Shown here: piece after piece, positions 28,856-44,896 of the stretch | Position numbering within the stretch: the first letter of the stretch is position 1 | How the letters are laid out: every line of letters begins with the position of its first letter | NCBI GenBank assembly: GCA_963741985.1 | Contig: CAVUKD010000001.1 | Coordinates: 42,916 to 106,915 of the forward strand | Source: an uncultured Cryomorphaceae bacterium | GTDB lineage: Bacteria > Bacteroidota > Bacteroidia > Flavobacteriales_D > Cryomorphaceae | Reading direction: 5' to 3' | DNA: 64,000 nt | The notes under the pieces: generated by a model | Told to the model about the DNA's origin: nothing | Database searches by the model: none | What the model saw: only the letters and a program-made list of their open reading frames with translations | Translations under genes and position numbers: made by a program

Positions 28856-29656
28856 TTAATTCTGGGGATTATAATATTTCAAAGCTTTAGGCATGTATGC
28901 TTCTAAATCTTTAATACGAGTTGCATCCGCAGGGTGAGTGCTCAAAAATTCAGGTGGTTTGTCTCCACCTTGTGCCGCCATGCGTTTCCAAAATTCAGGC
29001 GCAGTTCGTGGATCGTATCCAGCCATAGCCATAAATACCAAACCCATTTTATCCGCTTCGCTTTCATCCTTTCTGGAAAAAGCCAAAGCACCCAGTCCGG
29101 CACCAATTCCATAGGATTGTAATAGCAAATCGTGTGTAAGCTGCGGCTGGTCTTGCAATAAAACATCTAGTGTACTGCCCGCAGCCTGAATCCCTATTTG
29201 TTGGCTCATACGCTCATTTCCATGTCTCGCTACCGCATGGCTTACCTCATGACCCATTACTACAGCAATACCGGCCTCATCGTCGCAAATTGGGAGAATA
29301 CCCGTGTAAAATACTACGCGTCCACCGGGCATACACCATGCATTAACGGTCTGCTCATCCACAGTATGAAACGTCCATTTAAATTCGCTCGCCAATTCCT
29401 TATATCCATGTTCATTGAGGTAAGTATTCACTGCGGTTGAAATCCGCTTCCCAACTTTTTCAACTTGTTTTGCCCTTGGATCCGAAGCGGGTAATGGCGG
29501 ATGCTCTTTTAGAAATTTGGAATATTCGGTGGCACTCATTTCCGTCATTTGTGATGTCGGCAACAAATTCAATTGACGGCGCCCGGTAATAGGCACTTTA
29601 GAACATCCCATAAGGAGGAATCCAGTAAGTAATACAAGTGCGAATGTCTTCTTCAT
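28856..29656 (-). CDS. M48 family zinc metallopeptidase, lipoprotein
   Basis: Lipobox LLMGC; NAWCMPGG, GHEVSHAVARH, ESEADKMG and STHP motifs. Confidence 0.92.
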   Translation of the reverse strand: MKKTFALVLLTGFLLMGCSKVPITGRRQLNLLPTSQMTEMSATEYSKFLKEHPPLPASDPRAKQVEKVGKRISTAVNTYLNEHGYKELASEFKWTFHTVDEQTVNAWCMPGGRVVFYTGILPICDDEAGIAVVMGHEVSHAVARHGNERMSQQIGIQAAGSTLDVLLQDQPQLTHDLLLQSYGIGAGLGALAFSRKDESEADKMGLVFMAMAGYDPRTAPEFWKRMAAQGGDKPPEFLSTHPADATRIKDLEAYMPKALKYYNPQN

Positions 29657-29944
29657 CTATTGTACTTCAGCGGTTAATCCCCTATTTTGCAATGCAGAAC
29701 ATAGGGGTTTTAATTTTTCAAACTCTCCGCGCTTTACGGAGCACTTTCCATTATAATGCACGATATGGGTACATTGTTCAGCTTGAATCAAACTATGTTT
29801 ACAAACTTTGACAAGACTATCGATTACGAAGTCAAACGTATGATAATCATCATCAAAAAGAATAAGTTCTTTCTGATCTTTTAGCAATTCATCAAGTTGA
29901 ATATCAACTTCTTCCTCAATCTGAACATCCGACATTTCCATCAT
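29657..29944 (-). CDS. clpS: ATP-dependent Clp protease adaptor ClpS (short Bacteroidota type)
   Basis: LILFDDDYHTFDFVI...AEQC..IVHYNGKC.V...L...GLTAEV; stop codon directly abuts the M48 ATG. Confidence 0.88.
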   Translation of the reverse strand: MMEMSDVQIEEEVDIQLDELLKDQKELILFDDDYHTFDFVIDSLVKVCKHSLIQAEQCTHIVHYNGKCSVKRGEFEKLKPLCSALQNRGLTAEVQ

Positions 29945-29965: not shown

Positions 29966-29973
29966 CAAAGGTA
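29966..29973 (-). promoter_or_regulatory. Housekeeping promoter -7 element (TACCTTTG) upstream of clpS
   Basis: Exact TAnnTTTG match on the minus strand, 21 nt before the clpS ATG. Confidence 0.55.
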
Positions 29974-30008: not shown

Positions 30009-33000
30009 TTATTTTGAATCGACAGAAGTAATTTTGCCGTTGACCACCTGCCCCATTATGGCGGAATCTATTCCGGCTTTGCGGCTCAATTTTAGAAAGT
30101 CTTCCGCTTCAGCTTTGGTCTCAAACTCGGGCGAGGCGTAAATTGAAATGCCGTTTGGTGCAGTAACCCTTCTTATCTGCAAATCGGATCTATCAAGGAA
30201 AACATTTGCCACATTTTGAGGAATATCGCCTGCATAGCTTCCCAGGATAATAACGTATCTCACATTGTCTTTAAAAGGTTCAGATTTGGCAGTGGATTCA
30301 GATTTCGTTTTAGCCACCGGCTTAACACTCTCTGGTTGCTGATTTTTTGAAATTTGAGCTGATAAGATCGAATTTCCTTTCTGATCCAGTAATTCTTGAG
30401 CACGAGTCAAAGAAATTCGTACTCCATTATAATACGCCGTGATAAATGCATCGGTCACTCCTTTGGCAATAGCCTCGGATTTTCGAACGGTTGCATTTTT
30501 AACACTGGAATAGCGGCCACTGGTGTAGCGAATAAATTTAGATGCGGTGAGCTCACTATTCAATTCTACCAAATTGAATAATTTATCGAGTTTAACCGGT
30601 TTCGAATAAACCCCCACCTGAACAGTATAAAATAATCCGGGAGTAACTTCTACCTGAGTGGCTTGAGCTGCTTCAGGATCAGAGTAGTAATCTATATTTT
30701 TCGTTTGAATGGCATCAATTTTAGCTATCTCATCCGTGCTTTTGGTGGCACTCGCTTGTTTACCCGGGTTTTCGGCCGCTTTGTTTTGAGCTATTTCTTC
30801 GGCCGTTACACCTTCATTCACTCGCGCTTGCCGCAAAATGTCCTGAGCCTGAGCACCGGTTAGGCGTTCTCCATCGATATACGCTACAACGAATGCATCA
30901 GAATAACCGCGGGCGCGAATCTTTGTCTTAGCCTCAAGCGCATTGCGGTATTGTTTGAAAATTCCGGCACGATAACGGGTAATTCCATTGTCGAGCTTCT
31001 CTCCCATTATTGGTGCAAAATCTCCGAAAAGATCTTGTGGAATTTTATTCCTAAAAGCGCCAACCTGCACTTGGAAAATCAATCCTTTTGGAAGCTCAGG
31101 ATTCATCGGAATAGGTAACAATTTGGAGTAAATCGGTTGATCTGTATCGATGAAAAGCGACTCCTTCACATCCGAGAAATCATCTTTTTCAGCAATTACT
31201 TCTACAACATTCAGCCAGTTACCATGTGCTTCCAGCAAAAGTTTCTCATCTATCGAACTTAGATTTTCATTAACAGTTACGATATCCGAATCGGGAGTTT
31301 TCTCAGGTGAGGCGGGGGGCACAACATTAATTTTTAAATCTTTTTTGGGAGTTGATTTTACTGGTTTGGCATCATGAATTTCTGTGGAAGCAAGATCGGA
31401 AGTTACAACCGTATAGGTTTTATTGTTTAACACAGCATTAAGTTCGGCTAAATCTTTTGGTTGCAAATATGTGGCACTGCGCGCAATTACCTCTTCTTGT
31501 GATTGTCGCATCGTACGCAGATCTTCTGCTTGATAAGCTGCTAATGAAGCTTTTTCGAGTTTTTCACTTGCCGAAGCAGTCAGACGATCAATGCGATTCT
31601 GAATTTGTATTTTCCTACTTTCAATATTTTCGTGTTTTTTCGCATTTTCTAATCTTTTTACTTCCTCCAGTGTCTCCTTAGCATTGTTCGTGAGCCTTTC
31701 AGCATAATCCGCTTTTCGACTCTCTATTTTCTTCAAACTGTCTGCCTTGATCGATGCCGTGAGATAATTAAGTTTCTCCGGGCTGCCTTTCAGCAATCGA
31801 ATTCCTTTCTCATCAATTTTCGTTGCCGTGCTGAGCAATTTATAATCCGCTTCTTCATTTGCGGATTCATAGAGAATAGGAGAAACTTGGAGCTCCACGT
31901 TATTTGCAATATAATCTGCTTTTTTCTTAGGAGCCATCTTGGATTCATAATCCCTGAAAATTGGTGTTATATAGCTCATGCCCTTTTCAGGTTGATAGTT
32001 AGCTGATTTCTCCAGTATCGCTATTTCCGCAATATCAGATAGTTCAGGAACTTCTTGATTCGTATTTGTTATGGTGTCAGCAGCTTGGTTATCAACTGCG
32101 TTAGCGACCACCACTCGAATTTCATGCGCCTCAACAATATCATCAAGCTGCGTATTAAGTGCATCGAGCTTAGCAATTAAGTCACGATCTCTGGAAATTT
32201 TTTCGGAATTTAATATAATCCCTTTTTGAAGATTTGATTCATTTTCTGAGAGTTGCATAGCAAGACGCGATGATTCCTCAGTTAATTCCCTTATGGGTAT
32301 GGTTTCGCGTGAAGCAGTCGGAAAATTCTGAATCTCAGACATCACCGCATCATTGGCAGATTGGAAAAAAGCGATTTCAGCGGCATTTGAGTTTGCAATG
32401 ACTTCGTTTATTTGCGCATCATTCTTTTCAAGTTTTGTATTTAAATTTGCAAGTTCGGCAGATATTTGATTTTTTTGCACCCCTTGCGGCATTGTTTCAA
32501 TCTGATTCACTAAATTTTGAGCTTCCTGCCGCATCTGTATAGATGAATCCATTTTTGAACGAATTCCGTTGAAAGTAATATTGGCATTCAGTGATTTGTA
32601 ATTCCCTGAGCTGACTTTAGGAGTTTGAATCAGCGCATTAGCCTTTTCAATATTTTGACGTATTTCAGTCGTTGAAATCTCAGAATTTGCAGATACCTCA
32701 TTCGATCTTCCATTCTCTGCAATTGAATTATCAATCTGGCGGTTTACTTCGGTTTTGGTTTGAGCGGCCAGCATTTCGGCTTCAGATTTTAACCGGTCGG
32801 CTTCCTGTCTTTTGTCAGCTGCGATATCATCCAATTGCTGAATTTCTTGCTGCACCAAATCCCGATTAACGTTGGAAGAAGGATCATCGAGTTCGGCTAT
32901 CAATTCATTAATGGAAGCATCAATTTGAGCTGCTATTTGAGCATTCAAAGCAGACATCCGCGTCAATTCATCTAATTTATTAGGCTTTTCGGCCAAAATT

Positions 33001-36000
33001 TCGTCAGAAGAAACCTGATAAAGCGAATCAAAATGATGTACAATTTCAGCCGTCATTTCGGAAGTATTTCTTGGTTCTTCCTTAATTTTCTGTGATTCAG
33101 CGCCAAAAACTTCAGTAGACTCAGCGTTTTCTGAATGGTCTAGTGTATTCTCATTTTGATTTGTGTTTTCTGCTAATTCAGGCTGTCCGTTTTCCGGCTC
33201 ATTTGACGCAAGGCTAATATTTTCAATAAATGTCTGATCTTTATCAATCTCATCAATTACAGCCGATCGCTCAGCCAGTAGTAAGTCATAACGCTTTTGC
33301 AGGGCAATTTTATTATTCGCATTGGTGGTCCCATTTAGCGCTGCAGAATATATCTCAATATCTGCATGCAAATTCTTCAGGTAATCTTTATTAATGTCAA
33401 TTCGGGATGCAGCTTTCGCTTCCTCAGTAGCCTGAAGATCAGATTCCTTCATTTCTACCTCATAGCCTGGAAGGATAACATTGCGCGAATATGAAAGTTG
33501 AAGTTCGGCAGCTAGTTCAGGACTCAAATTCGGAAACTGTGAAGAATTATTTGCCGTTTTATTGATCTGTTCATCTGCTGTAACGGTTTCAGAAACCATG
33601 GATTTATACTCGCGCGCCTCAGGAGTTCGTGCTTGGTAAGCCATCTCTCCAGTTTGAACTTTTCGATCCTGAAGGATTTCAAGCATTTTCATGCGCCGTA
33701 ATTCGAGGAGTTGTTCGGACCACAATTCACTGACCGCAGAATCCGACATATTTTTATCGACAGATGCAATGAAATTTTCATTCAATGCAATACGTTTATT
33801 AGCAATTTCTGGATCACTCAATCCGGACAACTCAATTGAAGCCAGTTCGGGGAGGTAATTAGAATCCACCTTCCGAATATTTTTTATTGATTGGATATCT
33901 GTTGCCGATTCATTACTTTTCATTTCTAATCGACTCACCAAAGAGGAGCTCAGGGTATCTACATCATTTTCGGCCGCAGCGACGACACTTGCAAGGGCCT
34001 CTGCATCAGTTCGATCTGCACTTTGCATTTTTTGGATCGAAGCCTCACTTACAGAAATTTCTTTTTCCTTAGCCGTGCGAAGCTCCCTGTATTGATCCAA
34101 TTGCGCCTGAGCGCCGGCTTTGTCGGTTGCAGTATTTGCTGCAAGTTCATCTTCGAGCTCAGCTATAGAGGCATCAATAATAGCGATCCAGTCTGAGGCA
34201 GCAGAAATTTTTACTTTCTCAGCTTTTATCTGCTTCGGGATTTCGGTTATTTCTGGTTTCTTCACATCATCACCCTCCCCTGTCGCGACGGAATGAACAG
34301 AATCACTTTTTGCCAGTTCATTAACCGTAAGCGAGTTTTCAAGAGAATTACCCTTTGAATCACTTCCTTGATTCCCAAACACATCAGGTGTTGCATTCGC
34401 TATTTCATCACCAACCAATTTTGGATTGGATATAGATTCATTTACTCTTTTCTCTTCAAGACTATTCTCCGATTCATCCGACTTATTTTCAGCTAAATCG
34501 GCTGAACTTGATTTTGGAACCTCTTCGTTCGTGGAGTTTCTGGCATCCTGAGTAATAGTCTCATCTTGCGAAGATTCATTCAGGTTTTTGGCAGAATCCG
34601 TTCTATCAGAACGAGCGATTTCGGCTTGTGTTGATGCAGAAGGGTCAATTCCATTTTCGGTTTCTTCAGCATCTTCATTCGAAAGATTCTCGACTTGGGA
34701 ATTGGATTTATCTAAATCCACATTTTCTTTGTCATTATTAGTTGAAAATGAGGCTAAAAGCGCATCATCATTTTGGACTCCAGCTTGACTGTTAACTGAG
34801 GCATCTGGAGCATATTCTCTCTTAAAAGCCATTGCAACCTGATCGTTTTCAAAAACATTTCCTGCATCAGGATTAGCCGTCAGATAAGATGAAACCGCCT
34901 GGTTATCAATCGATAATTTCGAAATAGATAAGGCTACTTGGTCCAGGTTACCCTCTTTAATTTCATTTGCCGCGCTGGCAACAGTTTTGTCGGGGGTTGA
35001 GTCTTCACTAAGCGCGGCCAGAATATCGTATTGCTGAGATTTGCTGAAAGCTTCTTTTTGCACCATTGCTGCTTCCGCAAATGCCTTATCCGTTCTTCTT
35101 TCCGAACTGGCAATTTCAGCTTTTAAGTTAACAATTTCGCCATCAAGTTTAGTGGCATCTTTTCCTTTAGCCGTTTCTCTTTGACGGTTTCGGGTAACTA
35201 AACGAGCCTTTAATTCATCATTTTGTGCTCGGAGGGAAGAAGCACGATCGAGGTATTTTTTAGCGTCTCTTTGAGCTTCGCTGCTATTAGATTGAATCTC
35301 AGTAACCGGATTATATTTTTCTACCGATTTGTCTGTATTTTCCTGATTCTCCTTTTCACGTTTTAAAGCAGTCAAAGCAGCATTGTAGTCATCGCCTTCC
35401 AGCGCAGCTTTTAAAGAATCATTAAACTGTTGATTTTTTTCATAAGCCGTCTGGGTTCTTTCTTCAATTTTGGAAAGATTTTCAATCAGTGCTTTAGAAC
35501 TTTCAGCTTCATTTAACGCATTCTCAGCTTTCAGTTTCGCAATTCCCGCATCAAACATTATTTTACTACGCTCATCTCCAGTGGCTTTATCTGCCTGGGC
35601 TATCAAGCCGCTTGCCTCTTTCTGTTTGGCTTCGGCTACAGCTAATACATCAAAATAATTTTGGTTTGCAGCATTTTTCAATTGAGAAATACGCGCTGCT
35701 TGTGAACCAATTTTCTTGGTTCTTTCCAAAGCAGTATTCAAAACTTTTTCATTGTTCAACCCCGCTCCGAAACCGGCCGCAGTATAGGCCATGGCAATAT
35801 CTTGTTCTGATTCAGGCTGCAGTACCGGTTCTTCAGCTTGTCCCGAAGCATTAAAGTTTACATCAAGCGCCGCACGCTGACGCAAAAGTTTTTGTGCCAA
35901 TGCAGTTACATCCCCATCATAGGTTTGATCAAAGAGATTATTAATAAGCAATTTTTCCACTCCGGAAGAGCTTACGAGTTGCATGTTTTGCAAATAGGCC

Positions 36001-37286
36001 TTTATGCCTGAGCTTTTCGGAATATCTACCGTTCCACTATGTATCTGATTGCTCTTTTCAATTTCGACTAAAAATTTAAATCGTCCACTTCTCGGAAAGC
36101 TCAATACATAATCACCCGAATTGGGATCGGTATATTGTACATCGATTTGTGCGTTTGTGGAAGCATCCACTACGGTGATTTTTGCCAGTTTGTTTTCCGG
36201 ACTAATTTTGTTTGAGAAGCTTCCTTTAATTAAGGTGATTTCAGCAGGGACACTTTTAACTAATACTTTATATACATCCAACTCACCTTGTGTGCTGCCT
36301 CGTGAGGATGCAAAATTGGCCAATTGTTTTGCCGAATCGGCAACGTAAAAAAGATCGTCATCAGGTGTGTTTATAGCAAAATCGAGATTCTTGGCAGTGG
36401 TAAACCTTCCAGTTGATGCATCCAGATCAGCGCGAAAAATATCATATCCTCCCATGCTGCTGTGGCCTTTGGAGGAGAAATAGAACGTCGTATTATCGGG
36501 GTGTAAAAAAGGATAATCTTCATCATACGGGGTATTAATCTCTGGACCGAGTTTTTGCGGGTTAGAAAATGCACCGTTTGGTAAAACTTCCGCTTGATAG
36601 ATATCGAGACCGTTATCACCATCTTTCCCATAGCTCGAAAAATAAACCGTAGTTCCCGACCCGCGAAAAAGAATCAGTGATTTATGGTTTCGCTTCTTAT
36701 CAAGCGAGCTCAGAAGGGCATCGGGCGTAACGAGGATCTTGCCTCCAATATCGCTCAGGTCGTATATTCTGAAGAAAGATTCAGCCAGAGATTTATTCTT
36801 AGCCAGAACCGTAACTTCCTTGATGTTTGACAGAAGGTTTTGTCCGTTGCGGCAATCTTCAATTTCTCGATCAACATTTCGCTCGGCAATTTCCTTTTTC
36901 GATGCGAGTTCCTGAAATTTTTGATAGGCATTGATCGCATCCGCAAATTGATAATTAAGGTGATAGGCTTTTCCCAGAAAGTACCAACAATTTTTGTCGA
37001 TTCCAGTTTTTGTGGAAGCAAAACGCAGATACTTTATGGCTTCTTCCTTCTTAGTCGCATCGCCATAAAGTGCTGTTGCACCATACTTATAATTGAATTC
37101 TGGCTTGGTGGGTTCGAGGCTTAATAATTGGGCGTAAAGCGGCATTGCCTCAGCGTATTTGTGCTGTTCAAAGAGCACATTTGCTTCGCTGAGCAAATTA
37201 TCTTCACTGTACTGTGCCTTAAGGCTTAATGCCGAAGTAAGACACAGCGCAATTAAATACAGCTTGTATTTAAAGCGTTGAGTCAA
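30009..37286 (-). CDS. Giant exported protein: TPR + PD40/WD40-like propeller + carboxypeptidase-regulatory-like domain + long helical stalk + three SPOR-like domains
   Basis: Signal peptide ending SLKAQ; TPRs; PD40 motifs (INTPYDEDYPFLHPDNTTFYFSSKGHSSMGGYDIF, INTPDDD); three C-terminal repeats F.VQVGAF/Y...RY..G...A......G..DAF..AY. Confidence 0.75.
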   Translation of the reverse strand: MTQRFKYKLYLIALCLTSALSLKAQYSEDNLLSEANVLFEQHKYAEAMPLYAQLLSLEPTKPEFNYKYGATALYGDATKKEEAIKYLRFASTKTGIDKNCWYFLGKAYHLNYQFADAINAYQKFQELASKKEIAERNVDREIEDCRNGQNLLSNIKEVTVLAKNKSLAESFFRIYDLSDIGGKILVTPDALLSSLDKKRNHKSLILFRGSGTTVYFSSYGKDGDNGLDIYQAEVLPNGAFSNPQKLGPEINTPYDEDYPFLHPDNTTFYFSSKGHSSMGGYDIFRADLDASTGRFTTAKNLDFAINTPDDDLFYVADSAKQLANFASSRGSTQGELDVYKVLVKSVPAEITLIKGSFSNKISPENKLAKITVVDASTNAQIDVQYTDPNSGDYVLSFPRSGRFKFLVEIEKSNQIHSGTVDIPKSSGIKAYLQNMQLVSSSGVEKLLINNLFDQTYDGDVTALAQKLLRQRAALDVNFNASGQAEEPVLQPESEQDIAMAYTAAGFGAGLNNEKVLNTALERTKKIGSQAARISQLKNAANQNYFDVLAVAEAKQKEASGLIAQADKATGDERSKIMFDAGIAKLKAENALNEAESSKALIENLSKIEERTQTAYEKNQQFNDSLKAALEGDDYNAALTALKREKENQENTDKSVEKYNPVTEIQSNSSEAQRDAKKYLDRASSLRAQNDELKARLVTRNRQRETAKGKDATKLDGEIVNLKAEIASSERRTDKAFAEAAMVQKEAFSKSQQYDILAALSEDSTPDKTVASAANEIKEGNLDQVALSISKLSIDNQAVSSYLTANPDAGNVFENDQVAMAFKREYAPDASVNSQAGVQNDDALLASFSTNNDKENVDLDKSNSQVENLSNEDAEETENGIDPSASTQAEIARSDRTDSAKNLNESSQDETITQDARNSTNEEVPKSSSADLAENKSDESENSLEEKRVNESISNPKLVGDEIANATPDVFGNQGSDSKGNSLENSLTVNELAKSDSVHSVATGEGDDVKKPEITEIPKQIKAEKVKISAASDWIAIIDASIAELEDELAANTATDKAGAQAQLDQYRELRTAKEKEISVSEASIQKMQSADRTDAEALASVVAAAENDVDTLSSSLVSRLEMKSNESATDIQSIKNIRKVDSNYLPELASIELSGLSDPEIANKRIALNENFIASVDKNMSDSAVSELWSEQLLELRRMKMLEILQDRKVQTGEMAYQARTPEAREYKSMVSETVTADEQINKTANNSSQFPNLSPELAAELQLSYSRNVILPGYEVEMKESDLQATEEAKAASRIDINKDYLKNLHADIEIYSAALNGTTNANNKIALQKRYDLLLAERSAVIDEIDKDQTFIENISLASNEPENGQPELAENTNQNENTLDHSENAESTEVFGAESQKIKEEPRNTSEMTAEIVHHFDSLYQVSSDEILAEKPNKLDELTRMSALNAQIAAQIDASINELIAELDDPSSNVNRDLVQQEIQQLDDIAADKRQEADRLKSEAEMLAAQTKTEVNRQIDNSIAENGRSNEVSANSEISTTEIRQNIEKANALIQTPKVSSGNYKSLNANITFNGIRSKMDSSIQMRQEAQNLVNQIETMPQGVQKNQISAELANLNTKLEKNDAQINEVIANSNAAEIAFFQSANDAVMSEIQNFPTASRETIPIRELTEESSRLAMQLSENESNLQKGIILNSEKISRDRDLIAKLDALNTQLDDIVEAHEIRVVVANAVDNQAADTITNTNQEVPELSDIAEIAILEKSANYQPEKGMSYITPIFRDYESKMAPKKKADYIANNVELQVSPILYESANEEADYKLLSTATKIDEKGIRLLKGSPEKLNYLTASIKADSLKKIESRKADYAERLTNNAKETLEEVKRLENAKKHENIESRKIQIQNRIDRLTASASEKLEKASLAAYQAEDLRTMRQSQEEVIARSATYLQPKDLAELNAVLNNKTYTVVTSDLASTEIHDAKPVKSTPKKDLKINVVPPASPEKTPDSDIVTVNENLSSIDEKLLLEAHGNWLNVVEVIAEKDDFSDVKESLFIDTDQPIYSKLLPIPMNPELPKGLIFQVQVGAFRNKIPQDLFGDFAPIMGEKLDNGITRYRAGIFKQYRNALEAKTKIRARGYSDAFVVAYIDGERLTGAQAQDILRQARVNEGVTAEEIAQNKAAENPGKQASATKSTDEIAKIDAIQTKNIDYYSDPEAAQATQVEVTPGLFYTVQVGVYSKPVKLDKLFNLVELNSELTASKFIRYTSGRYSSVKNATVRKSEAIAKGVTDAFITAYYNGVRISLTRAQELLDQKGNSILSAQISKNQQPESVKPVAKTKSESTAKSEPFKDNVRYVIILGSYAGDIPQNVANVFLDRSDLQIRRVTAPNGISIYASPEFETKAEAEDFLKLSRKAGIDSAIMGQVVNGKITSVDSK

Positions 37287-37362
37287 TTTATAGTTTAAAG
37301 GTCCTTTTTCTACGCCTTGGGAAACGTAAAGTTACGCTAAGAAACCAATAAAAAGGTTCTTA

Positions 37363-40300
37363 TTAAAACATGAACTGATCCAAAAATATATTTTGCTTGG
37401 ATTTGGAGCCTAACATGTAAAGATAGTCATCCTCTTTTTTCTTTCCGGAGGTCTTTCTTTTGTCCTCTTTTTCTTCGAGCACTACGTTGTTAAACTCTTT
37501 ATCTGAGGCATATACCTGCATAAGACCACGCTTGTAAGTGAAGTAATACCAATTGGCTTCATCTACTTCAAAGTAGATATGAATAATATCCCCGCTCACT
37601 CTTTTTTCAATTACAATTTTCCCGGGTACTTTTCGGAAAAATTGATCTTTACCAATGCTTGCTATTCCGATCTCTCCTTTCGAAACAAAAGCTTCCAAAA
37701 CCGGATCCCATGTCATTTCAACGTCTGAGATGAATAAAGTCTTATTCAAGTCATCCGGAATCTTTTTGAGTGTGCCGCTCAAACTCAATTCGGAAATAAC
37801 CTTATCGGAAGCGTCAAGCCCCATCAATTCTCGAACCGCATACTCGTAATTTGATTTGGAAAAATCGACAGGTTTCAAATCGGGAACTGCACTCAGGTAA
37901 GTTCGCATCTTGTCCAGCGCCTGCTGACTAAATGGGAAGTTGAGCGTCATGGAAGCATCTATTGCTACTTTTTCATTTGCCGGATCATAATTCAACTTAC
38001 CGATGGTTTTCATGTCAAATTGTCCCAGATCATCACTTAAATTCAAAGTTCCCTGTCCATCAAGACTGCAGCTCTCGGTATTGAGGGATACAAAATTCCC
38101 GGGAAGGTTATTTTGTTTTAGTTTAGCATCTGAGGCTACTTCGTAAGTTTTCTTGACTTTATTGTATTCCAGCAATCCACGTGAAGTTAAGACACTTTGA
38201 TCATTTTCATTGTGACTCGCCGACAAGAAAGTACCATATATCTCATACGGATCCTTCGCGAGTTTCAACCCCACATCAACGAGATCTCCCTTATCATCGG
38301 TGAGCACAGTATCTACCGGGATTTCCACGTTTTGAGGGTCTATACTTGCCGTAAATTTCATCCAATTTCGTTGCAATCGGTCGCAATTGTGAATAATGCG
38401 TGTACTTCCGTCAAAAGTCAAAAACTTGTCGTTTGACTTCAGATTCACTTTTCCTTGATACTCAAAATGGGGGCTTAGAAAAAACTTATCGTCTGAAGCG
38501 ATCCTACCGGTACCAACAGTTTGAAGCGAACTATCCACACCAATGGTTTCGATGGAGATCAAATTTGGCTGTTTGTTTTCATCTATATATGTGTAACTTC
38601 CCGCACCCACGTAGTCAAATCGTGAGAAGATAGTTACCGATGCATCGCTAATCGTATGGTATTGGGTAACGTAGTTGGCAAGGATTGTAGCATGTACAAG
38701 TGGATCCATCTTGGCGCGACGTCGGATAACTACTTTTCCGCTATCGGGTGTAATTTTTGCGTCTGCAACGCGAATCCACGGAATTTTTGAAGCAGAGATG
38801 GTATAGCTATCTAAGTCATAAACGGCACTTGGCGACATGAAATTAAGTGAATCCTGACCTTTGGCAGTACTAAAAAAGTTCGAGCGATTCATATCGAGCT
38901 CTGTATCGATTACGAAATCCGTTGCCATCTGTCTCGATGTTTCCAGAGCAATATCGTTTTTGTCCATAAACCACTTAAATTCATCCATAAAACAGATATA
39001 GTCATTTACGGGAAATTCTACTTTCGTTTCATCGCCATTCGATTTGAATTTACCAATACGGTTATCAAAATCAATGAATGCATTTACATTGTCCGTTTTA
39101 AAAGCAAGATTGGCTTCCTGCATAGCCAGAAGGCTGAATGCTGCCGTATCTGAATTGAAAGTATTGTAATGAAAGTTCATCAGATCGGATTCCAACTCAG
39201 CTCCCGAAAATACAACAACACCCGAACCGGATAACCCAGTAGGCTGAAGATCGATTTTTCCTTTAGTAGCCTGTGCCTGTCCTTCAAAGAGGTTAATTGG
39301 TGTTTTAATGACACCGGCTGACATTTTATCATCCAGTGGGTAGAATCCTAAATCGACAGTCGTGGCATTCGCTTCAGGTATTTCAAGCGGTGTTTTTTGC
39401 GCAGTATTTACGAAAGATGAGGTAATACCGCGCGTACTATCTGGGAAGAAGGTAAATCGGTCTGAGGAGGCGGTCGCTGTGAGATATTCAATATCTCCAT
39501 TTCCTTGAAGCCCGTCATCACCCAGAATAATTTCATTTTTAAAAGTGGCCTTATTCCCATATAGCGCAAGTCCTTCAGCAGGTGTAGCGCGTTTGAAACC
39601 AAGTGAATAATCTTCCTGAATACGAAGTTTTTCATTCATTTCGGGAAATATCCCGCCACTAACGAATCGCCCGTCGAAGGCCACTTGTTCAGTGGCAAAA
39701 TTATCGAGGCTGTCGAGCACAAAAGGCTCGAGTTCGAAAAATACTTTATCGCGTTTGTATAGCCCACTCTGGATTCTCTTATTATCGTAATAGACATATG
39801 AATCTTTATCGCTGGTAAGAATCGGAAATTCAGTAAATTGATCCTGTAATCCGGATTTGTTAAATGGGTTGTCAATCTGGAGCGTCCCTCCTATCCCTTC
39901 AATAACATTTTTCACCCTTCGAAGATTACTCGAATTTGGGCTAAAATCCTCAACGTAGAGCTGACAGGAATCTACATTTATCAAATCGATCTGGAATTTG
40001 TCGTAATTGAAAGCATACTCCTGACCATAAAATTCGAAACGTCCGGAGCGAATGACACCTCCAAAATTGAAATCACGATTTTTACGCAAGTTTACCTCGC
40101 CATTTTTTGGGTAAATCGCCACATTCTGTGAATCCGAAAGCAGAATTTGGCTTACTCCTTTCAATGCGAGATCAAAATTGACGAGATTGAGTTCAGCATT
40201 ATCACCATTTTTGACGTCAGAGTTAAAGATAATAACATCGTAATCAATATTTCCGCCAGCAGCGGAGATATAATCGAAAAGCTTCTGACGGACATGCACC

Positions 40301-41808
40301 ATTTGAGAAGCAATATCATAGTCGATAAATCCTTTGTTTGTAAGATCTATAAGCCTTGGTATGTATGCTTCCAATCTGAAGCCCAAGTCTTCCACAAGTC
40401 CTTCGGCATAAAAATTATCGGAATTTACTTTTCGCGCATACTGTCGTATGGCGTAGAGTGGATTTATCTTATCCATTCCCTGTAATGAATAGTACCGTTT
40501 CAATTTAAAGAAATTAGAACTCTCAAAGGCAGCACGCGTTTCTGAACTCCCGGCCAGATTGCCCATGCGCATTATTGGGTCGTCAATATTCCAAGTGAAG
40601 GATTCAAAGTACATATCCACTTTATGGTACGAATCGTAATACGGTGATTTTGAAAGACCTTCATCGGTTCTGATTAGGGTGAGCGACCTGTTTTCATCCC
40701 GAAATCGCAGACGAACGCTCGGGTGAACAATAGAGTCATTATTGAGTATTATAACTACCCGAGCGTCCGTAGAAGAAATTCTATCGGGTTTAATCGCATA
40801 AAACTGTGAATATGCGATGAGTTGCGGAAGGTTATCCCTTTTAAAAGTAAGGATGGCCGGTTGATTTTTATCGCCGTACCCTTGCAGGTTAGCTCCCTCC
40901 ATTCGAAAACCTCCATTGTAATCCACTTTAGAAACGATGTCTTTTATCGACAAGCGCTTTTCATACGATGAAAATTGAGGGTAAGTAGCCTTATCCGATG
41001 TCACATTTGCAAGTATTTTATCTTCAACATCTCCTAAGAGCGGATAGGAAAAGAATTCATTAAAGAACTCTACCGAGTCAATCTTAAACGATGAAGAGCG
41101 AGTCGTAATTTCGTAAGGGTACTTTATTACCGCATAGGTTTTATTCGGATCAAGGGCAGCTCTTTCCCAAGTTATTTTTCCGTCTTTCCCATTAAATTTC
41201 TCGGTGCGTGGAAAATATTGACCAGAAGTACTATATATCACGGAACTATCGCCTTTTGCCAAACAGATCAAATTCAAATTGGGAAATTTGATCGATGGAT
41301 CTGTGCCGTCAAAAACGAATTCCCACCCGGCATTATTTGATTTCCATATAGTTGAAGGCGATTCGTAGAATGTATTATCTTGAAAGAGCGACTGAGACAT
41401 AGTAATGTAGTCTTCGATACCGCTTTTACTTCCTTTTAGTAAACTCATCAATGTTTCCGTCCACGTATCAAAACCCGCTCCTTCTTGAGGGGATCCGGGA
41501 AAAGAAAGCAAACACGTAAAATAGGCTTTGTAAAAAGGGTAAGGACGGAGACGTTTTTTGAGCATTCCATCGGCTATTGTGTATATTTTCTCGGCTTGTT
41601 CATCGGTATAAACAGTGCTATTTAACCAAAACGGACCAAAAGCTTCGTCCATGAATTCTTTGGTTTCCTTCTTATCCACATCGTTCATCAATCCGTATAC
41701 CTCGTCATAAAATGCTTGTCGCTCATGCGTGAATTCTCTCAAGCTTTGGGCTTGAAGCATTCCACCCAATAAAACCCCTAATACACTTACTACAATTGCT
41801 TTAACCAT
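37363..41808 (-). CDS. Large exported beta-strand-rich hypothetical protein (1481 aa)
   Basis: Uninterrupted ORF with signal peptide ending LQAQ; alternating hydrophobic/polar strand pattern through most of its length; no catalytic motif recognised. Confidence 0.8.
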   Translation of the reverse strand: MVKAIVVSVLGVLLGGMLQAQSLREFTHERQAFYDEVYGLMNDVDKKETKEFMDEAFGPFWLNSTVYTDEQAEKIYTIADGMLKKRLRPYPFYKAYFTCLLSFPGSPQEGAGFDTWTETLMSLLKGSKSGIEDYITMSQSLFQDNTFYESPSTIWKSNNAGWEFVFDGTDPSIKFPNLNLICLAKGDSSVIYSTSGQYFPRTEKFNGKDGKITWERAALDPNKTYAVIKYPYEITTRSSSFKIDSVEFFNEFFSYPLLGDVEDKILANVTSDKATYPQFSSYEKRLSIKDIVSKVDYNGGFRMEGANLQGYGDKNQPAILTFKRDNLPQLIAYSQFYAIKPDRISSTDARVVIILNNDSIVHPSVRLRFRDENRSLTLIRTDEGLSKSPYYDSYHKVDMYFESFTWNIDDPIMRMGNLAGSSETRAAFESSNFFKLKRYYSLQGMDKINPLYAIRQYARKVNSDNFYAEGLVEDLGFRLEAYIPRLIDLTNKGFIDYDIASQMVHVRQKLFDYISAAGGNIDYDVIIFNSDVKNGDNAELNLVNFDLALKGVSQILLSDSQNVAIYPKNGEVNLRKNRDFNFGGVIRSGRFEFYGQEYAFNYDKFQIDLINVDSCQLYVEDFSPNSSNLRRVKNVIEGIGGTLQIDNPFNKSGLQDQFTEFPILTSDKDSYVYYDNKRIQSGLYKRDKVFFELEPFVLDSLDNFATEQVAFDGRFVSGGIFPEMNEKLRIQEDYSLGFKRATPAEGLALYGNKATFKNEIILGDDGLQGNGDIEYLTATASSDRFTFFPDSTRGITSSFVNTAQKTPLEIPEANATTVDLGFYPLDDKMSAGVIKTPINLFEGQAQATKGKIDLQPTGLSGSGVVVFSGAELESDLMNFHYNTFNSDTAAFSLLAMQEANLAFKTDNVNAFIDFDNRIGKFKSNGDETKVEFPVNDYICFMDEFKWFMDKNDIALETSRQMATDFVIDTELDMNRSNFFSTAKGQDSLNFMSPSAVYDLDSYTISASKIPWIRVADAKITPDSGKVVIRRRAKMDPLVHATILANYVTQYHTISDASVTIFSRFDYVGAGSYTYIDENKQPNLISIETIGVDSSLQTVGTGRIASDDKFFLSPHFEYQGKVNLKSNDKFLTFDGSTRIIHNCDRLQRNWMKFTASIDPQNVEIPVDTVLTDDKGDLVDVGLKLAKDPYEIYGTFLSASHNENDQSVLTSRGLLEYNKVKKTYEVASDAKLKQNNLPGNFVSLNTESCSLDGQGTLNLSDDLGQFDMKTIGKLNYDPANEKVAIDASMTLNFPFSQQALDKMRTYLSAVPDLKPVDFSKSNYEYAVRELMGLDASDKVISELSLSGTLKKIPDDLNKTLFISDVEMTWDPVLEAFVSKGEIGIASIGKDQFFRKVPGKIVIEKRVSGDIIHIYFEVDEANWYYFTYKRGLMQVYASDKEFNNVVLEEKEDKRKTSGKKKEDDYLYMLGSKSKQNIFLDQFMF

Positions 41809-41814
41809 TTACAC

Positions 41815-42648
41815 TTATTTCTTTTTAAATTTTATTGCTGCCCAGTCATGTTGGTTTTTATCCATTTCGGGAATCAGGTTTTGCCTTTCGGCAAAATGAA
41901 TAATTTCTTCCATATCAGAGGTGAAAAAACCACTGAGAATCAATGTTCCTCTGGTTTTAAGACTTACCGAAAAGGAGCTCATCATCTTCATGAGTACATT
42001 CTTGTTAATATTGGCTAAGATAATGTCATATTGGAGCGAGTTGCTAGGAATAGCATCTGCGTTTTGCACATCGATATCCACATTATTAAGCTTCACATTT
42101 TCAAGGGTGTTTTTATACGCCCAGTTTTCATCGTCAATAGCTACCACTTGTGACGCCCCTTTCTTTGCGGCGGCAATTGCCAACACTCCCGTTCCGCTTC
42201 CCATATCGAGAACAGTTTTATTTTTTAAATCCAGGTCCAAGAGCATCGACATTACCAAAAAAGTCGTTTCATGGTGGCCCGTGCCAAACGACATCTGTGG
42301 ATTTATAACGATTTCAAGATCATATAACTTCTCTGTATTTGAGTGGAATGGTGCACGAATAATACATTTATCACCGATTTCCACTATCGGATATGATTTT
42401 TCCCATTCAGCATTCCAGTTTCGATCTTCGATTCGCTGTTTTGAAAACTGTATCTCTCCAATTTCTTCCAATTCTTGATGAAGTTTTTCAACTGCAGATG
42501 TATTGAGAAAGTTCTCAGGGATATACGCTTTCAATTCGGGATCTTTTTCTTCAAAACTTTCAAATTCCAGGCCAGAAAGCCTAGCGACCAAAATTTCACT
42601 CAGCGGTTGGAAAGGATGACAGACGAATGTATATACAACATAATTCAT
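41815..42648 (-). CDS. prmA: Ribosomal protein L11 methyltransferase
   Basis: NWNAEWEK, INPQMSFGTGHHETT, VLDMGSGTGVLAIAA and DIILANIN. Confidence 0.95.
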   Translation of the reverse strand: MNYVVYTFVCHPFQPLSEILVARLSGLEFESFEEKDPELKAYIPENFLNTSAVEKLHQELEEIGEIQFSKQRIEDRNWNAEWEKSYPIVEIGDKCIIRAPFHSNTEKLYDLEIVINPQMSFGTGHHETTFLVMSMLLDLDLKNKTVLDMGSGTGVLAIAAAKKGASQVVAIDDENWAYKNTLENVKLNNVDIDVQNADAIPSNSLQYDIILANINKNVLMKMMSSFSVSLKTRGTLILSGFFTSDMEEIIHFAERQNLIPEMDKNQHDWAAIKFKKK

Positions 42649-43412
42649 TTTGCTGCCGCCTCAATAATTTGAATAAAATCAGCGGCTTTTAATGCTGCTC
42701 CGCCAATCAGCCCTCCGTCCACATCGGGTTGAGAGAATATCGATTCAGCATTTGAAGGTTTGCAACTCCCTCCATAAAGGATGCGCGTTGCTTTCGCAAA
42801 ATCAGCACCATGAAGCTCTGCCAGAACTTTTCGGATTTCACCATGCATTTCCTGGGCTTGACCTGCAGAAGCTGTTTTGCCAGTACCAATCGCCCAAACG
42901 GGTTCGTAGGCTATGATCAAATTCTTAAGGGCGTGGCTTTCAAAATCTTTGAGCGCTGTAATAATCTGGCTCGTTACGACTTCTACATACTTGTCCGCTT
43001 CGCGTTCTTCCAGTTTTTCACCACAGCAATAGATAGGGATAATGCCGGAATTGACACAGGCTTTAATTTTCTTGGCAATCAATTCATCGGTCTCTTTGTG
43101 ATATTCACGCCGCTCACTATGGCCAACAATAGCATACTTTATGTCAATTGATTTGAGCATCGCGGCCGAGTATTCTCCGGTAAAAGCACCATATTCCTCA
43201 TGTCCACTTACATCCTGAGCACATACCCCAATCGAGTCGTCCAGTTTCGATTGAAGTTTTTCCAGATAGAGCGAGGGGGGTGAAATGATCACTTTAACAT
43301 TCTTCGGTATTCTGTTCATATTTTCTTGCAATGCGTCAGTTAACATTTTTGCATCTTCCAGCGTAGTGTTCATCTTCCAATTACCCGCTACGATTTTAGT
43401 TCTTGATTTCAT
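42645..43412 (-). CDS. tpiA: Triosephosphate isomerase
   Basis: IVAGNWKMN, GAFTGE, VGHSERR, AYEPVWAIGTG, LYGGS and GGLIGGA; start reassigned to the ATG at 43412 (MKSRTK). Confidence 0.97.
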   Translation of the reverse strand: MKSRTKIVAGNWKMNTTLEDAKMLTDALQENMNRIPKNVKVIISPPSLYLEKLQSKLDDSIGVCAQDVSGHEEYGAFTGEYSAAMLKSIDIKYAIVGHSERREYHKETDELIAKKIKACVNSGIIPIYCCGEKLEEREADKYVEVVTSQIITALKDFESHALKNLIIAYEPVWAIGTGKTASAGQAQEMHGEIRKVLAELHGADFAKATRILYGGSCKPSNAESIFSQPDVDGGLIGGAALKAADFIQIIEAAAK

Positions 43413-43609
43413 AAGTATGTGATTTAGGTTCAATATTTTAAAACTTAAAAGTAAAGTAAAAAGTATACCACTTACAATGGTCTGGCCGTTTATTTTACCT
43501 ATTAACCGAATTTTGCTTTCGGTAGTTTTTTGTTTAGGTTGAACAGTTACACGGTCTATGAGGTATCTCCATAGAATTCCATTTTTTCTTCTAAAATGGG
43601 AGTAAAATC

Positions 43610-44896
43610 CTACTTCAACCTGATACGTGGATCGAGCCAACCGTATATAATATCCACAAAGATATTTATCAAAACGAAAGCGGAAGCTATTACGAGCACT
43701 GAACCCATCACTACCGGATAATCATCATTTTGCAAGGACATAAAAACTTGCAATCCTAATCCTTTCCAATTAAAAATAAACTCAATGAAAACCGCACCGG
43801 CAAGCATGGAGGCAAACCACCCTGAAACGGCTGTCACCACCGGGTTTAGCGCGTTTCGCAAAGCATGTCCGAAGACGACTTTCACAACCGAAAGACCTTT
43901 TGCACGAGCTGTTCGCACATAGTCTTTGGACAATTCTTCCAAAAGTGAATTTCGCGTAAGCTGCATAACAATAGCCAGCGGTCTGATTCCCAATGTTAAA
44001 ACTGGCAAAAACAAATTTCTAAAGGAAAGATAAGGCCCAGTGAAAACATCTACATCATATAAGGAACCAGTCATATTCAGTCCGGTGCCGGGCAGAATAA
44101 AATCCACCGAAGCAAAAGGAACGATTGAAAAACCGAATAAAAACCGAATCAGGCTATTGAGAAGAACTAATCCCAAACCGAGCACAAAACCTTTGAGCCC
44201 AACATTAACTATACGAAAGGTTGATCTATTCTTTTTTGCGAAAGCGGCAATAATCCCACCTATCAGTGCAATTATCATAGGCAAAGCCGGAAAAGAAATA
44301 TGCTGGGTCCATAAATATCCGCCAATCCAAGAAAAGATAATTGCCGCAAAAAAGGAGGGTGATGACATACCCAAAACTGCCGAGAAAAGGGAGAAATTAT
44401 CGAGAAATGAACCTTTGAATAACGCAGAGAGAATTCCAAAAAGGATTCCGACAAAGAGCGCGAAGCTGATGGCGAAAATGGCTAAAATTACCGTTCCCGG
44501 AAGGGCTTCGCCTATAACTTCGGACACCGGCTTACGAGATTGATACGAACGGCGTAAATAAGGAACTTTCAGCACAATGGCCTTTGAACCAATCGTTAAC
44601 AATTTAGAGAAATCGTACTTGGCAGAATCCAGATATAAATGGCTGTCTTCCTTATCTACTTCATGAATTGAAACCGGGCTTACATCGTTGAGATAGAGCG
44701 CGTACTGTTTCCATAGGGGAAGGTCGAGCCCCAATTCCCGATTTACCGTGGCAAGCGAAGCCTCATCGACGCGCTGACCTAGTAACATCCGCGCTGGGTC
44801 GCCGGGATTGATACTGAAAATAGCAAATACCAGCGTAATAACGCCCCACAGCACGAGAATTCCATAAAGCAGCTTACGTAAAATGTATCCGGCCAC
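43610..44896 (-). CDS. ABC transporter permease (DppB/OppB type), without partner genes in the window
   Basis: NPGDPARMLLG, EAA-type motif DYVRTARAKGLS, GAVFIEFIFNWKGLG and DIIYGWLDPRIR. Confidence 0.9.
   Translation of the reverse strand: MAGYILRKLLYGILVLWGVITLVFAIFSINPGDPARMLLGQRVDEASLATVNRELGLDLPLWKQYALYLNDVSPVSIHEVDKEDSHLYLDSAKYDFSKLLTIGSKAIVLKVPYLRRSYQSRKPVSEVIGEALPGTVILAIFAISFALFVGILFGILSALFKGSFLDNFSLFSAVLGMSSPSFFAAIIFSWIGGYLWTQHISFPALPMIIALIGGIIAAFAKKNRSTFRIVNVGLKGFVLGLGLVLLNSLIRFLFGFSIVPFASVDFILPGTGLNMTGSLYDVDVFTGPYLSFRNLFLPVLTLGIRPLAIVMQLTRNSLLEELSKDYVRTARAKGLSVVKVVFGHALRNALNPVVTAVSGWFASMLAGAVFIEFIFNWKGLGLQVFMSLQNDDYPVVMGSVLVIASAFVLINIFVDIIYGWLDPRIRLK

Follow-up and report, generated by a model that had tools for sequence, protein, structure and literature searches.

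Two very large, co-oriented genes lie between prmA and clpS in a 64,000 nucleotide (nt) stretch of the genome of an uncultured Cryomorphaceae bacterium (assembly GCA_963741985.1, contig CAVUKD010000001.1, positions 42,916 to 106,915 of the forward strand; hereafter the window). We give about an even chance to the reading that their products, referred to here as P1 (1481 amino acids) and P2 (2425 amino acids), are two separate conserved and unnamed envelope proteins, P1 being a candidate lipid conduit and P2 a wall-anchored tether, and not the two halves of a lineage-specific machine. P1 is near-universal and single-copy in Flavobacteriales, occurs in several other orders and is predicted to be exported, with neither a name nor a Pfam family, yet its confidently predicted fold contains a module resembling the Lpt carriers; it thus appears to place an Lpt-like fold within an unnamed giant architecture, while P2 assembles known domains into a new one. 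The movement of lipids and lipoproteins across the wide Bacteroidota periplasm is an active question, and two preprints from October 2026 describe a much enlarged Bacteroidota lipopolysaccharide (LPS) translocon with an additional role in exporting surface lipoproteins. As a tether between an envelope protein and peptidoglycan, P2 would have a new architecture. If P1 does carry lipid it would be a new component of outer-membrane biogenesis in a major phylum, one that includes fish and poultry pathogens as well as abundant marine bacteria.

Distribution of the P1 and P2 families

Residues 1-1200 of P1 were used as a query against 1.84 billion cluster representatives (clusters at 50 % identity), matching 1857 clusters at E ≤ 1e-3 and 1015 at E ≤ 1e-30, with nearly all full-length representatives falling at about 1470-1570 amino acids. 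P1 is present as a single copy in 40 of 41 close relatives and in 243 of the 251 genomes sampled from the order Flavobacteriales, and was found in 86 of 86 genera. Among named relatives Cryomorpha ignava is the closest, with 78 % identity in P1; the other matches are mostly metagenome bins labelled Flavobacteriales or Cryomorphaceae. A phylum-wide draw recovered P1 in 17 of 301 genomes, including families of other orders at 24-33 % identity, and homologues from outside the order carry the labels Sphingobacteriales, Chitinophagales, Saprospiraceae, Lewinellaceae and Xanthocytophaga along with a few Bacteroidales bins. All homologues are annotated as 'hypothetical protein' and lack a Pfam domain, and scans of P1 and six distant homologues against Pfam and NCBIfam returned no match. 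Judged by this distribution, P1 is a large unnamed family of the Bacteroidia that is older than the order Flavobacteriales.

Homologues of P2 fall into at least 460 clusters, whose members are named 'hypothetical', 'tetratricopeptide repeat protein' or 'PD40 domain-containing protein', and proteins of 1900-2700 amino acids occur across the order. No giant P2-type protein was found in 13 P1-carrying genomes of other orders, which encode just small SPOR proteins; the giant form of P2 is, as far as its homologues indicate, specific to Flavobacteriales. Both P1 and P2 can be regarded as real genes, given the hundreds of full-length P1 homologues of near-constant length and the number of homologous P2 clusters. 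The initial annotation had described the pair as a lineage-specific module inserted in a core operon. This view is contradicted by the near-universal presence of P1 in the order and by its position beside prmA in other orders, and comparison of the sequences instead places both genes in the ancestral, order-wide gene content, with P1 older than the order itself. For neither protein did a match to a characterised family exceed threshold, and literature searches found no paper on the P1 or the P2 family.

Predicted structure of P1

Sec signal peptides had been proposed for both proteins and are borne out by a hydrophobic start followed by a conserved A-Q site (Table 1), which in published signal-peptide work is the usual signal peptidase I site of Bacteroidota. 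Q21 of P1 is invariant or nearly so in family alignments, and the A-Q site recurs in the homologues of P2. Neither P1 nor P2 has a conserved lipobox cysteine, the same being true of those P2 homologues that have a plausible called start. As it is predicted to be Sec-exported, to be cleaved at A20-Q21 and to have no membrane anchor, P1 is most likely soluble in the periplasm.

Two AlphaFold2 jobs with overlapping residue ranges were run for P1, each on an alignment of 73 sequences covering 25-80 % identity. The model of residues 1-1200 had a mean predicted local distance difference test score (pLDDT) of 88.9 and a predicted template modelling score (pTM) of 0.58, and that of residues 741-1481 a pLDDT of 90.4 and a pTM of 0.73. 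Together they contain about 98 beta-strands, in keeping with the long beta-scaffold first envisaged, of which at least one module has the LptC/LptA fold. Behind a helical head, the body of the protein is predicted to consist of a beta region (residues 146-430), a helix-strand insert (436-517) and a second beta region (527-1290) containing many hairpins of 10-14 residues, and the C-terminal domain of a helical segment (about 1295-1345), a seven-strand sheet (1358-1466) and a terminal helix.

The insert matches OhrR (2pex) with a Foldseek probability of 1.00 over 84 columns. At the level of sequence, the P1 family profile searched against all PDB sequences detected only weak matches to the winged helices of PadR, TFE and SmtB (profile positions 452-521, E 0.07-1.4) and no Lpt protein. 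The occurrence of a winged-helix fold, which is of a DNA-binding type, inside an exported and otherwise all-beta protein suggests a protein-binding role. Comparison of P1 segments with one another using hhalign gave one weak pair, residues 527-581 with 977-1035 at 87 % probability, and since this was the only indication of an internal repeat P1 is not a simple tandem array at the sequence level. Invariant polar residues of the family include H362, H395, D522, D524 and H1051.

The Bacteroidota O-glycosylation sequon D-[ST]-[AILVMT] is not enriched in P1 (7 observed versus 5.9 expected). Six such sites, at residues 244, 358, 699, 790, 887 and 986, are kept in 45-72 of the 73 family members, and 'DS' recurs too in the consensus of the LptA family.

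Comparison of P1 with lipid-transfer proteins

In Foldseek searches of the PDB both P1 models matched LptC (6mit_C; probability 1.00, TM-score 0.63-0.64, root-mean-square deviation (rmsd) 3.3-3.5 Å over 173 columns) and LptA (2r1a/2r19; probability 0.95-1.00, TM-score 0.48-0.67), and LptH was matched as well. Besides that of the winged-helix insert, these are the confident domain-level matches of P1; the matches are listed without aligned residue ranges and the C-terminal domain is thus given no PDB match. The beta-jellyroll (beta-taco) fold of Lpt bridge and OstA-like proteins is found in at least one module of P1 and not over the whole chain, and we infer that this module lies within residues 741-1200 because the LptC/LptA matches are common to both overlapping models. 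The models support, at the level of the fold, the initial suggestion of a possible LptA/TamB/AsmA-like groove. Whole-chain alignments to LptD based on the 3Di structural alphabet reached an E of about 1e-5 and a probability of 0.99 for the C-terminal model. The weaker whole-chain matches comprised LptD, ApoB100, LPD-3 (at low rank) and a chorein-N protein, beside teneurin and other beta-rich proteins. The chorein-N (VPS13-type) protein was the best match in a viral structure library, with low probability, the matches to LPD-3 and the chorein-N protein being weak (probability 0.01-0.21).

The genome encodes its own LptA-like protein of 546 amino acids, the sole PF03968 match in the assembly (G000:C2:217957-219594, L099:1501-3138), and this family is present in 31 of 31 relatives. 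Two TamB genes (PF04357) are located elsewhere, on contigs C2 and C5. Since the genome has an LptA and two TamB genes besides, P1 is an additional protein and does not stand in for LptA or TamB as a diverged version of either.

P1 shares with the Lpt bridge a module that superposes on LptC/LptA with an rmsd of about 3 Å, Sec export without a membrane anchor, as is the case for LptA, and, in common with the LptA of Bacteroidota, a length far greater than that of the E. coli protein (10.64898/2026.10.03.756453). It is however about 2.7 times longer than the LptA of its own genome and is set apart by the helical head, the winged-helix insert and the C-terminal domain. Liu et al., in one of the October 2026 preprints, report the LptA of Bacteroidota as a 56-strand beta-taco, which the 546 amino acid protein fits, and add the subunits LptN, P, Q, R, S, T, U and V to the LPS translocon, where they serve surface-lipoprotein export (10.64898/2026.10.03.756453). 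Jana et al. describe LptZ as a protein of 642 amino acids and five domains (PMC13692018). Comparison with these descriptions sets P1 apart from the purified translocon subunits, and size and architecture rule out that P1 or P2 is LptZ, LptP or another of the new Lpt subunits.

AsmA-like proteins, TamB, YhdP and the eukaryotic bridge-like proteins are proposed to span the periplasm and to carry lipid in a groove. P1 is likewise giant and mostly beta, in a size class of about 1300-1700 amino acids together with AsmA-like/TamB/YhdP proteins, VPS13 and LPD-3. It differs from AsmA-like proteins and TamB in what appears to be a cleavable signal peptide in place of their N-terminal membrane anchor, and Pfam and NCBIfam searches found no TamB, AsmA or DUF490 match in P1.

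Domain architecture of P2

The PorE-like head and C-terminal SPOR domains first described for P2 are reflected in its TPR, PD40 and SPOR matches (Table 1). Residues 203-452 of P2 correspond to the propeller and regulatory domain of PorE and CHU_0125 (model positions 277-518), although over the complete NCBIfam models the matches are partial and score 100.6 bits for CHU_0125_OmpA (cutoff 620) and 88.4 bits for T9SS_PorE (cutoff 600). PorE is built of TPR, WD40, regulatory and OmpA_C-like domains (PMC12773672), and the OmpA_C-like domain is reported as essential for PorE function. P2 shares with PorE and CHU_0125 the TPR repeats and PD40 propeller of the head and a terminal module that binds peptidoglycan. 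In P2 this module consists of SPOR domains in place of OmpA_C, and P2 further differs in having a linker of about 1500 amino acids and no lipobox. No OmpA match was found in P2 using Pfam and NCBIfam.

The genome encodes at least two PorE/CHU_0125-like paralogues elsewhere, of 681 (G000:C3:289046-291091, L125:1546-3591) and 518 amino acids (G000:C2:1918208-1919764, L126:1709-3265), which score about 180-215 bits and so also fall below the NCBIfam cutoffs of 600-620; tblastn detected several more paralogues of the PD40 head. At 213-215 bits the best of these are closer to PorE/CHU_0125 than is P2.

Between families P2 aligns only in residues 1 to about 800 and about 2020-2420. The linker is composed of 44-55 % A/E/K/Q/L/R, 16-21 % D/E and 4-6 % G/P, and is conserved from residue 481 to about 800, the remainder being fast-evolving. 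Extended as a single helix (estimated at 0.15 nm per residue) it would greatly exceed the width of the periplasm, and P2 is therefore unlikely to be the simple cross-periplasm strut that the initial annotation proposed.

The Pfam SPOR domain was detected in 24 of 34 P2 homologues (best E 6.3e-11), some homologues carry a precomputed PF05036 match, and the P2 family profile weakly matches the SPOR structure of CwlC (1x60). The second SPOR domain is the most conserved block of the P2 tail. A third, C-terminal domain is probably SPOR-like, judged by its residue pattern; it is missing from the majority consensus, and most homologues appear to end after the second domain. C-terminal SPOR domains are common to P2 and FtsN, DamX, DedD, RlpA and CwlC. 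P2 differs from the SPOR division proteins in placing two to three such domains on an exported protein of 2400 amino acids with a propeller head and no transmembrane segment. The SPOR domains of FtsN, DamX and DedD bind glycan strands stripped of their peptides.

Gene order and linkage to plsY

Synteny was counted over the 70 evaluable loci among the 80 best loci from named genomes. The gene prmA is directly upstream of P1 in 57 of these, and in most related loci tpiA precedes both. The arrangement reaches into distant orders, where 10 of 14 loci have prmA immediately before P1 and tpiA-prmA-P1 is kept even at 24-33 % identity. Downstream of P1, the order P1-plsY-P2 was found at 36 loci and P1 directly followed by P2 at 11; four loci have plsY and then another gene, one further locus ends just after plsY, and the remaining 18 have other arrangements, so that plsY directly follows P1 in 41 of the 70. 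The gene lying between P1 and P2 encodes 215-224 amino acids and was identified as plsY (PF02660, E about 1e-55), a phospholipid-synthesis gene acting in the synthesis of lysophosphatidic acid. In most loci clpS is found 3′ of the P2 homologue; tpiA-prmA-P1-plsY-P2-clpS-M48 is thus the usual order, and a complete metagenome-derived genome has the order permease-tpiA-prmA-P1-plsY-P2-clpS-M48 with very short gaps.

Searches of the whole assembly with tblastn and hmmsearch showed plsY to be absent from the window's genome, which is 99.6 % complete. It is also absent from all 25 sampled genomes of the same family and from those sampled of families f2, f4, f5, f10, f11 and f12. The direct P1/P2 junction in the window thus sits at the position that plsY occupies in other families. 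Nine of 41 related genomes have plsY, and all nine copies adjoin the P1 homologue; coordinates of plsY include L014:7872-8546 and L127:14503-15156. P1-plsY adjacency occurs in one other order as well (L010), and at L006, L011 and L012, three loci from other orders, the gene immediately after P1 is the M48 peptidase.

Family f10 keeps prmA-P1-P2. In most genomes of family f11 P1 and P2 are 14-330 kb apart or on different contigs, a few genera keeping one of the adjacencies, and three of 30 genomes, all small, have kept P1 and have no P2. An adjacency of tpiA, prmA and clpS, given in the initial annotation for Flavobacteriaceae, was not seen in four f11 genomes, which keep tpiA-prmA and have no clpS within 10 kb. 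The P1-P2 neighbourhood is best described as an old co-directional housekeeping cluster whose two giant genes abut in the family of the window's genome, where plsY is absent.

Proposed roles and alternative explanations

Under the reading that we favour, P1 would use its Lpt-like beta-jellyroll structure to shield hydrophobic cargo, binding phospholipid, another envelope lipid or lipoprotein acyl chains, or passing them between inner and outer membrane, and would act in parallel to the canonical Lpt bridge and the TamB proteins. The link to plsY, together with the link to the M48 peptidase in three distant loci, points towards a role of P1 in membrane-lipid or outer-membrane biogenesis. P2 would fix its TolB/PorE-like binding head to peptidoglycan through the SPOR domains and act as a tether or scaffold anchored in the wall, perhaps at the division septum, since SPOR domains of other proteins bind peptide-free glycan strands. 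The analysis establishes the structure of the genes, their distribution and synteny, the domain content and the similarity of fold, whereas where the proteins reside, what P1 carries and whether P1 touches P2 are inferences. More tentatively, and with considerable doubt, P1 might define, besides the Lpt bridge and AsmA/TamB, a third type of conduit for lipid or lipoprotein in the periplasm of Bacteroidia, one that is anchor-less, about 1500 amino acids long, built on an Lpt-like beta-jellyroll, coupled to plsY and, in Flavobacteriales, positioned by P2.

A number of observations weigh against P1 as a lipid conduit. The likeness to Lpt proteins is at the fold level only, with no match to PF03968 or any other Lpt sequence or profile in P1; hhalign of the P1 family, whole and as six segments, against the genome's LptA family gave probabilities of 0.1-0.4 %, and the global TM-score to LptD is low at 0.15-0.19 (about 0.1-0.2). 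Inspection of the sequence found no inner-membrane anchor of the kind that AsmA-like bridge proteins have. The link between P1 and plsY could reflect inherited gene order and carry no functional meaning, as the cluster also contains unrelated housekeeping genes. Among the families sampled together with Bacteroides-type genomes P1 is rare, although it does occur in some metagenome bins with a Bacteroidales label. The frequent proximity of P2 to P1, taken up below, weighs against treating the two as separate.

P1 may instead be a structural scaffold of the periplasm or associated with the outer membrane, a spacer or docking platform that carries no lipid and in which the Lpt-like module merely reflects a common beta-sandwich shape. 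We consider this unlikely, though it accounts for several features: in sequence P1 is homologous to none of the Lpt or AsmA families, just one of its modules has a strong domain-level match, the winged-helix insert and helical head are typical protein-binding modules, and its many invariant polar residues are unexpected in a plain lipid groove. It fits less well with the identity of the confident domain-level matches, which apart from OhrR for the insert are LptC, LptA and LptH, with the way in which LptD, ApoB100, LPD-3 and the chorein-N protein stand out among the weaker whole-chain matches, or with the tight linkage to plsY, which points towards lipids.

That P1 and P2 together form one envelope-spanning machine, in which P2, anchored in the wall, would hold the P1 beta-conduit in position or stabilise it so that lipid or lipoprotein can be transported across the periplasm, for instance at the septum, appears quite improbable. 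P2 lies on the same strand within 1.5 kb downstream of P1 at 47 of the 70 loci, in all sampled families except f11; in the window the spacer has no terminator-like site and an imperfect promoter element; and both proteins are predicted to be exported, most genomes retaining the two even when their genes are not linked. We nevertheless rate this reading low because P1 predates P2, is far more widespread, occurs without it in other orders and in the three small f11 genomes, and is mostly unlinked from it in that large family. The interposition of plsY at most loci and the unrelated housekeeping genes of the cluster likewise argue against a dedicated pair, and the single trans-periplasmic complex first suggested was accordingly not substantiated.

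The remaining suggestion, that the pair is an accessory of type IX secretion (T9SS) or gliding motility with P2 as a PorE relative, draws on the partial PorE and CHU_0125 matches of the P2 head and was rejected as very improbable, given the sub-cutoff scores of these matches, the replacement of OmpA_C by SPOR, the closer paralogues elsewhere in the genome, the lack of a conserved lipobox, the lack of a recognised T9SS C-terminal domain in P1 or P2 (Pfam and NCBIfam) and the absence of gld, spr or por genes within about 15 kb.

Organisation of the cluster in the window

All genes of the cluster are encoded on the minus strand, in the order OppB-like permease, tpiA, prmA, P1, P2, clpS and M48 peptidase (Table 1). 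The two giant open reading frames (ORFs) between prmA and clpS and the short gaps of 6 and 76 nt described initially were confirmed on the sequence, the prmA stop codon being followed by GTGTAA (41809-41814) and then by the ATG of P1. A scan of the P1/P2 spacer found no terminator-like site, and its best likeness to the TAnnTTTG element is a 7/8 match (TAACTTTA). The separate TAnnTTTG element attributed to clpS is present as an exact copy. Pfam and NCBIfam support the identities of prmA, tpiA, clpS and the M48 peptidase, the last of which gives partial, below-cutoff matches to the NCBIfam BepA and LoiP models. Neither database returned a catalytic domain in P1 or P2, in agreement with the lack of a recognisable catalytic motif noted at the outset.

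Table 1 Coordinates of the cluster genes and of predicted features of P1 and P2 (positions in the window)
Feature	Position	Strand	Basis or remark
OppB-like permease	43610-44896	-	First in cluster order
tpiA (triosephosphate isomerase)	42645-43640	-	Pfam TIM 8.6e-93
prmA (ribosomal protein L11 methyltransferase)	41815-42648	-	Pfam PrmA 1.1e-51; NCBIfam NF001785 308 bits, above cutoff
P1, whole gene, 1481 amino acids, ATG start	37363-41808	-	ORF
P1 signal peptide, residues 1-20, MVKAIVVSVLGVLLGGMLQA followed by QS, predicted cleavage A20-Q21	41749-41808	-	Sequence inspection
P1 N-terminal all-helical domain, residues 30-144, seven predicted helices	41377-41721	-	AlphaFold2 m5125d6345e91, pLDDT about 80-94
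P1 beta-rich body, residues 146-1290, about 88 predicted strands, at least one LptA/LptC-like beta-jellyroll module	37939-41373	-	AlphaFold2 and Foldseek
P1 winged-helix-like insert, residues 436-517	40258-40503	-	Helix-strand pattern of model; Foldseek OhrR 2pex
P1 C-terminal domain, residues 1296-1481	37366-37923	-	AlphaFold2 m3df3536f43f1
P1/P2 spacer, 76 nt	37287-37362	-	Site of plsY in most other Flavobacteriales families
P2, whole gene, 2425 amino acids, TTG start	30009-37286	-	ORF
P2 signal peptide, residues 1-25, ...LTSALSLKA followed by QY, predicted cleavage between KA and QY	37212-37286	-	Sequence
P2 TPR region, residues 32-130	36897-37193	-	Pfam TPR_2 27 bits, TPR_14 24.8 bits, ANAPC3, others
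P2 PD40 beta-propeller and following domain, residues 203-452	35931-36680	-	Pfam PD40 31 bits, above cutoff
P2 acidic helix-prone linker, residues 481-2000	31287-35846	-	Composition
P2 SPOR domain 1, about residues 2045-2145	30852-31154	-	Pfam SPOR (PF05036) 21.2-21.4 bits, cutoff 21, marginal
P2 SPOR domain 2, about residues 2207-2295	30402-30668	-	Nearly invariant block GLFFTVQVGVYS...DAF; SPOR matches in homologues
P2 third, SPOR-like C-terminal domain, about residues 2325-2425	30012-30314	-	Sequence pattern
TACCTTTG, exact TAnnTTTG, Bacteroidota -7-type promoter element upstream of clpS	29966-29973	-	Sequence read
clpS	29657-29944	-	Pfam ClpS 6.9e-17
M48 metallopeptidase (short, BepA/LoiP-like, 266 amino acids), last gene of cluster	28856-29656	-	Pfam Peptidase_M48 2.1e-31

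A few kb from the cluster, at 24316-26403, the window also encodes a protein of 695 amino acids with five DUF349 repeats (Pfam E 4.4e-63).

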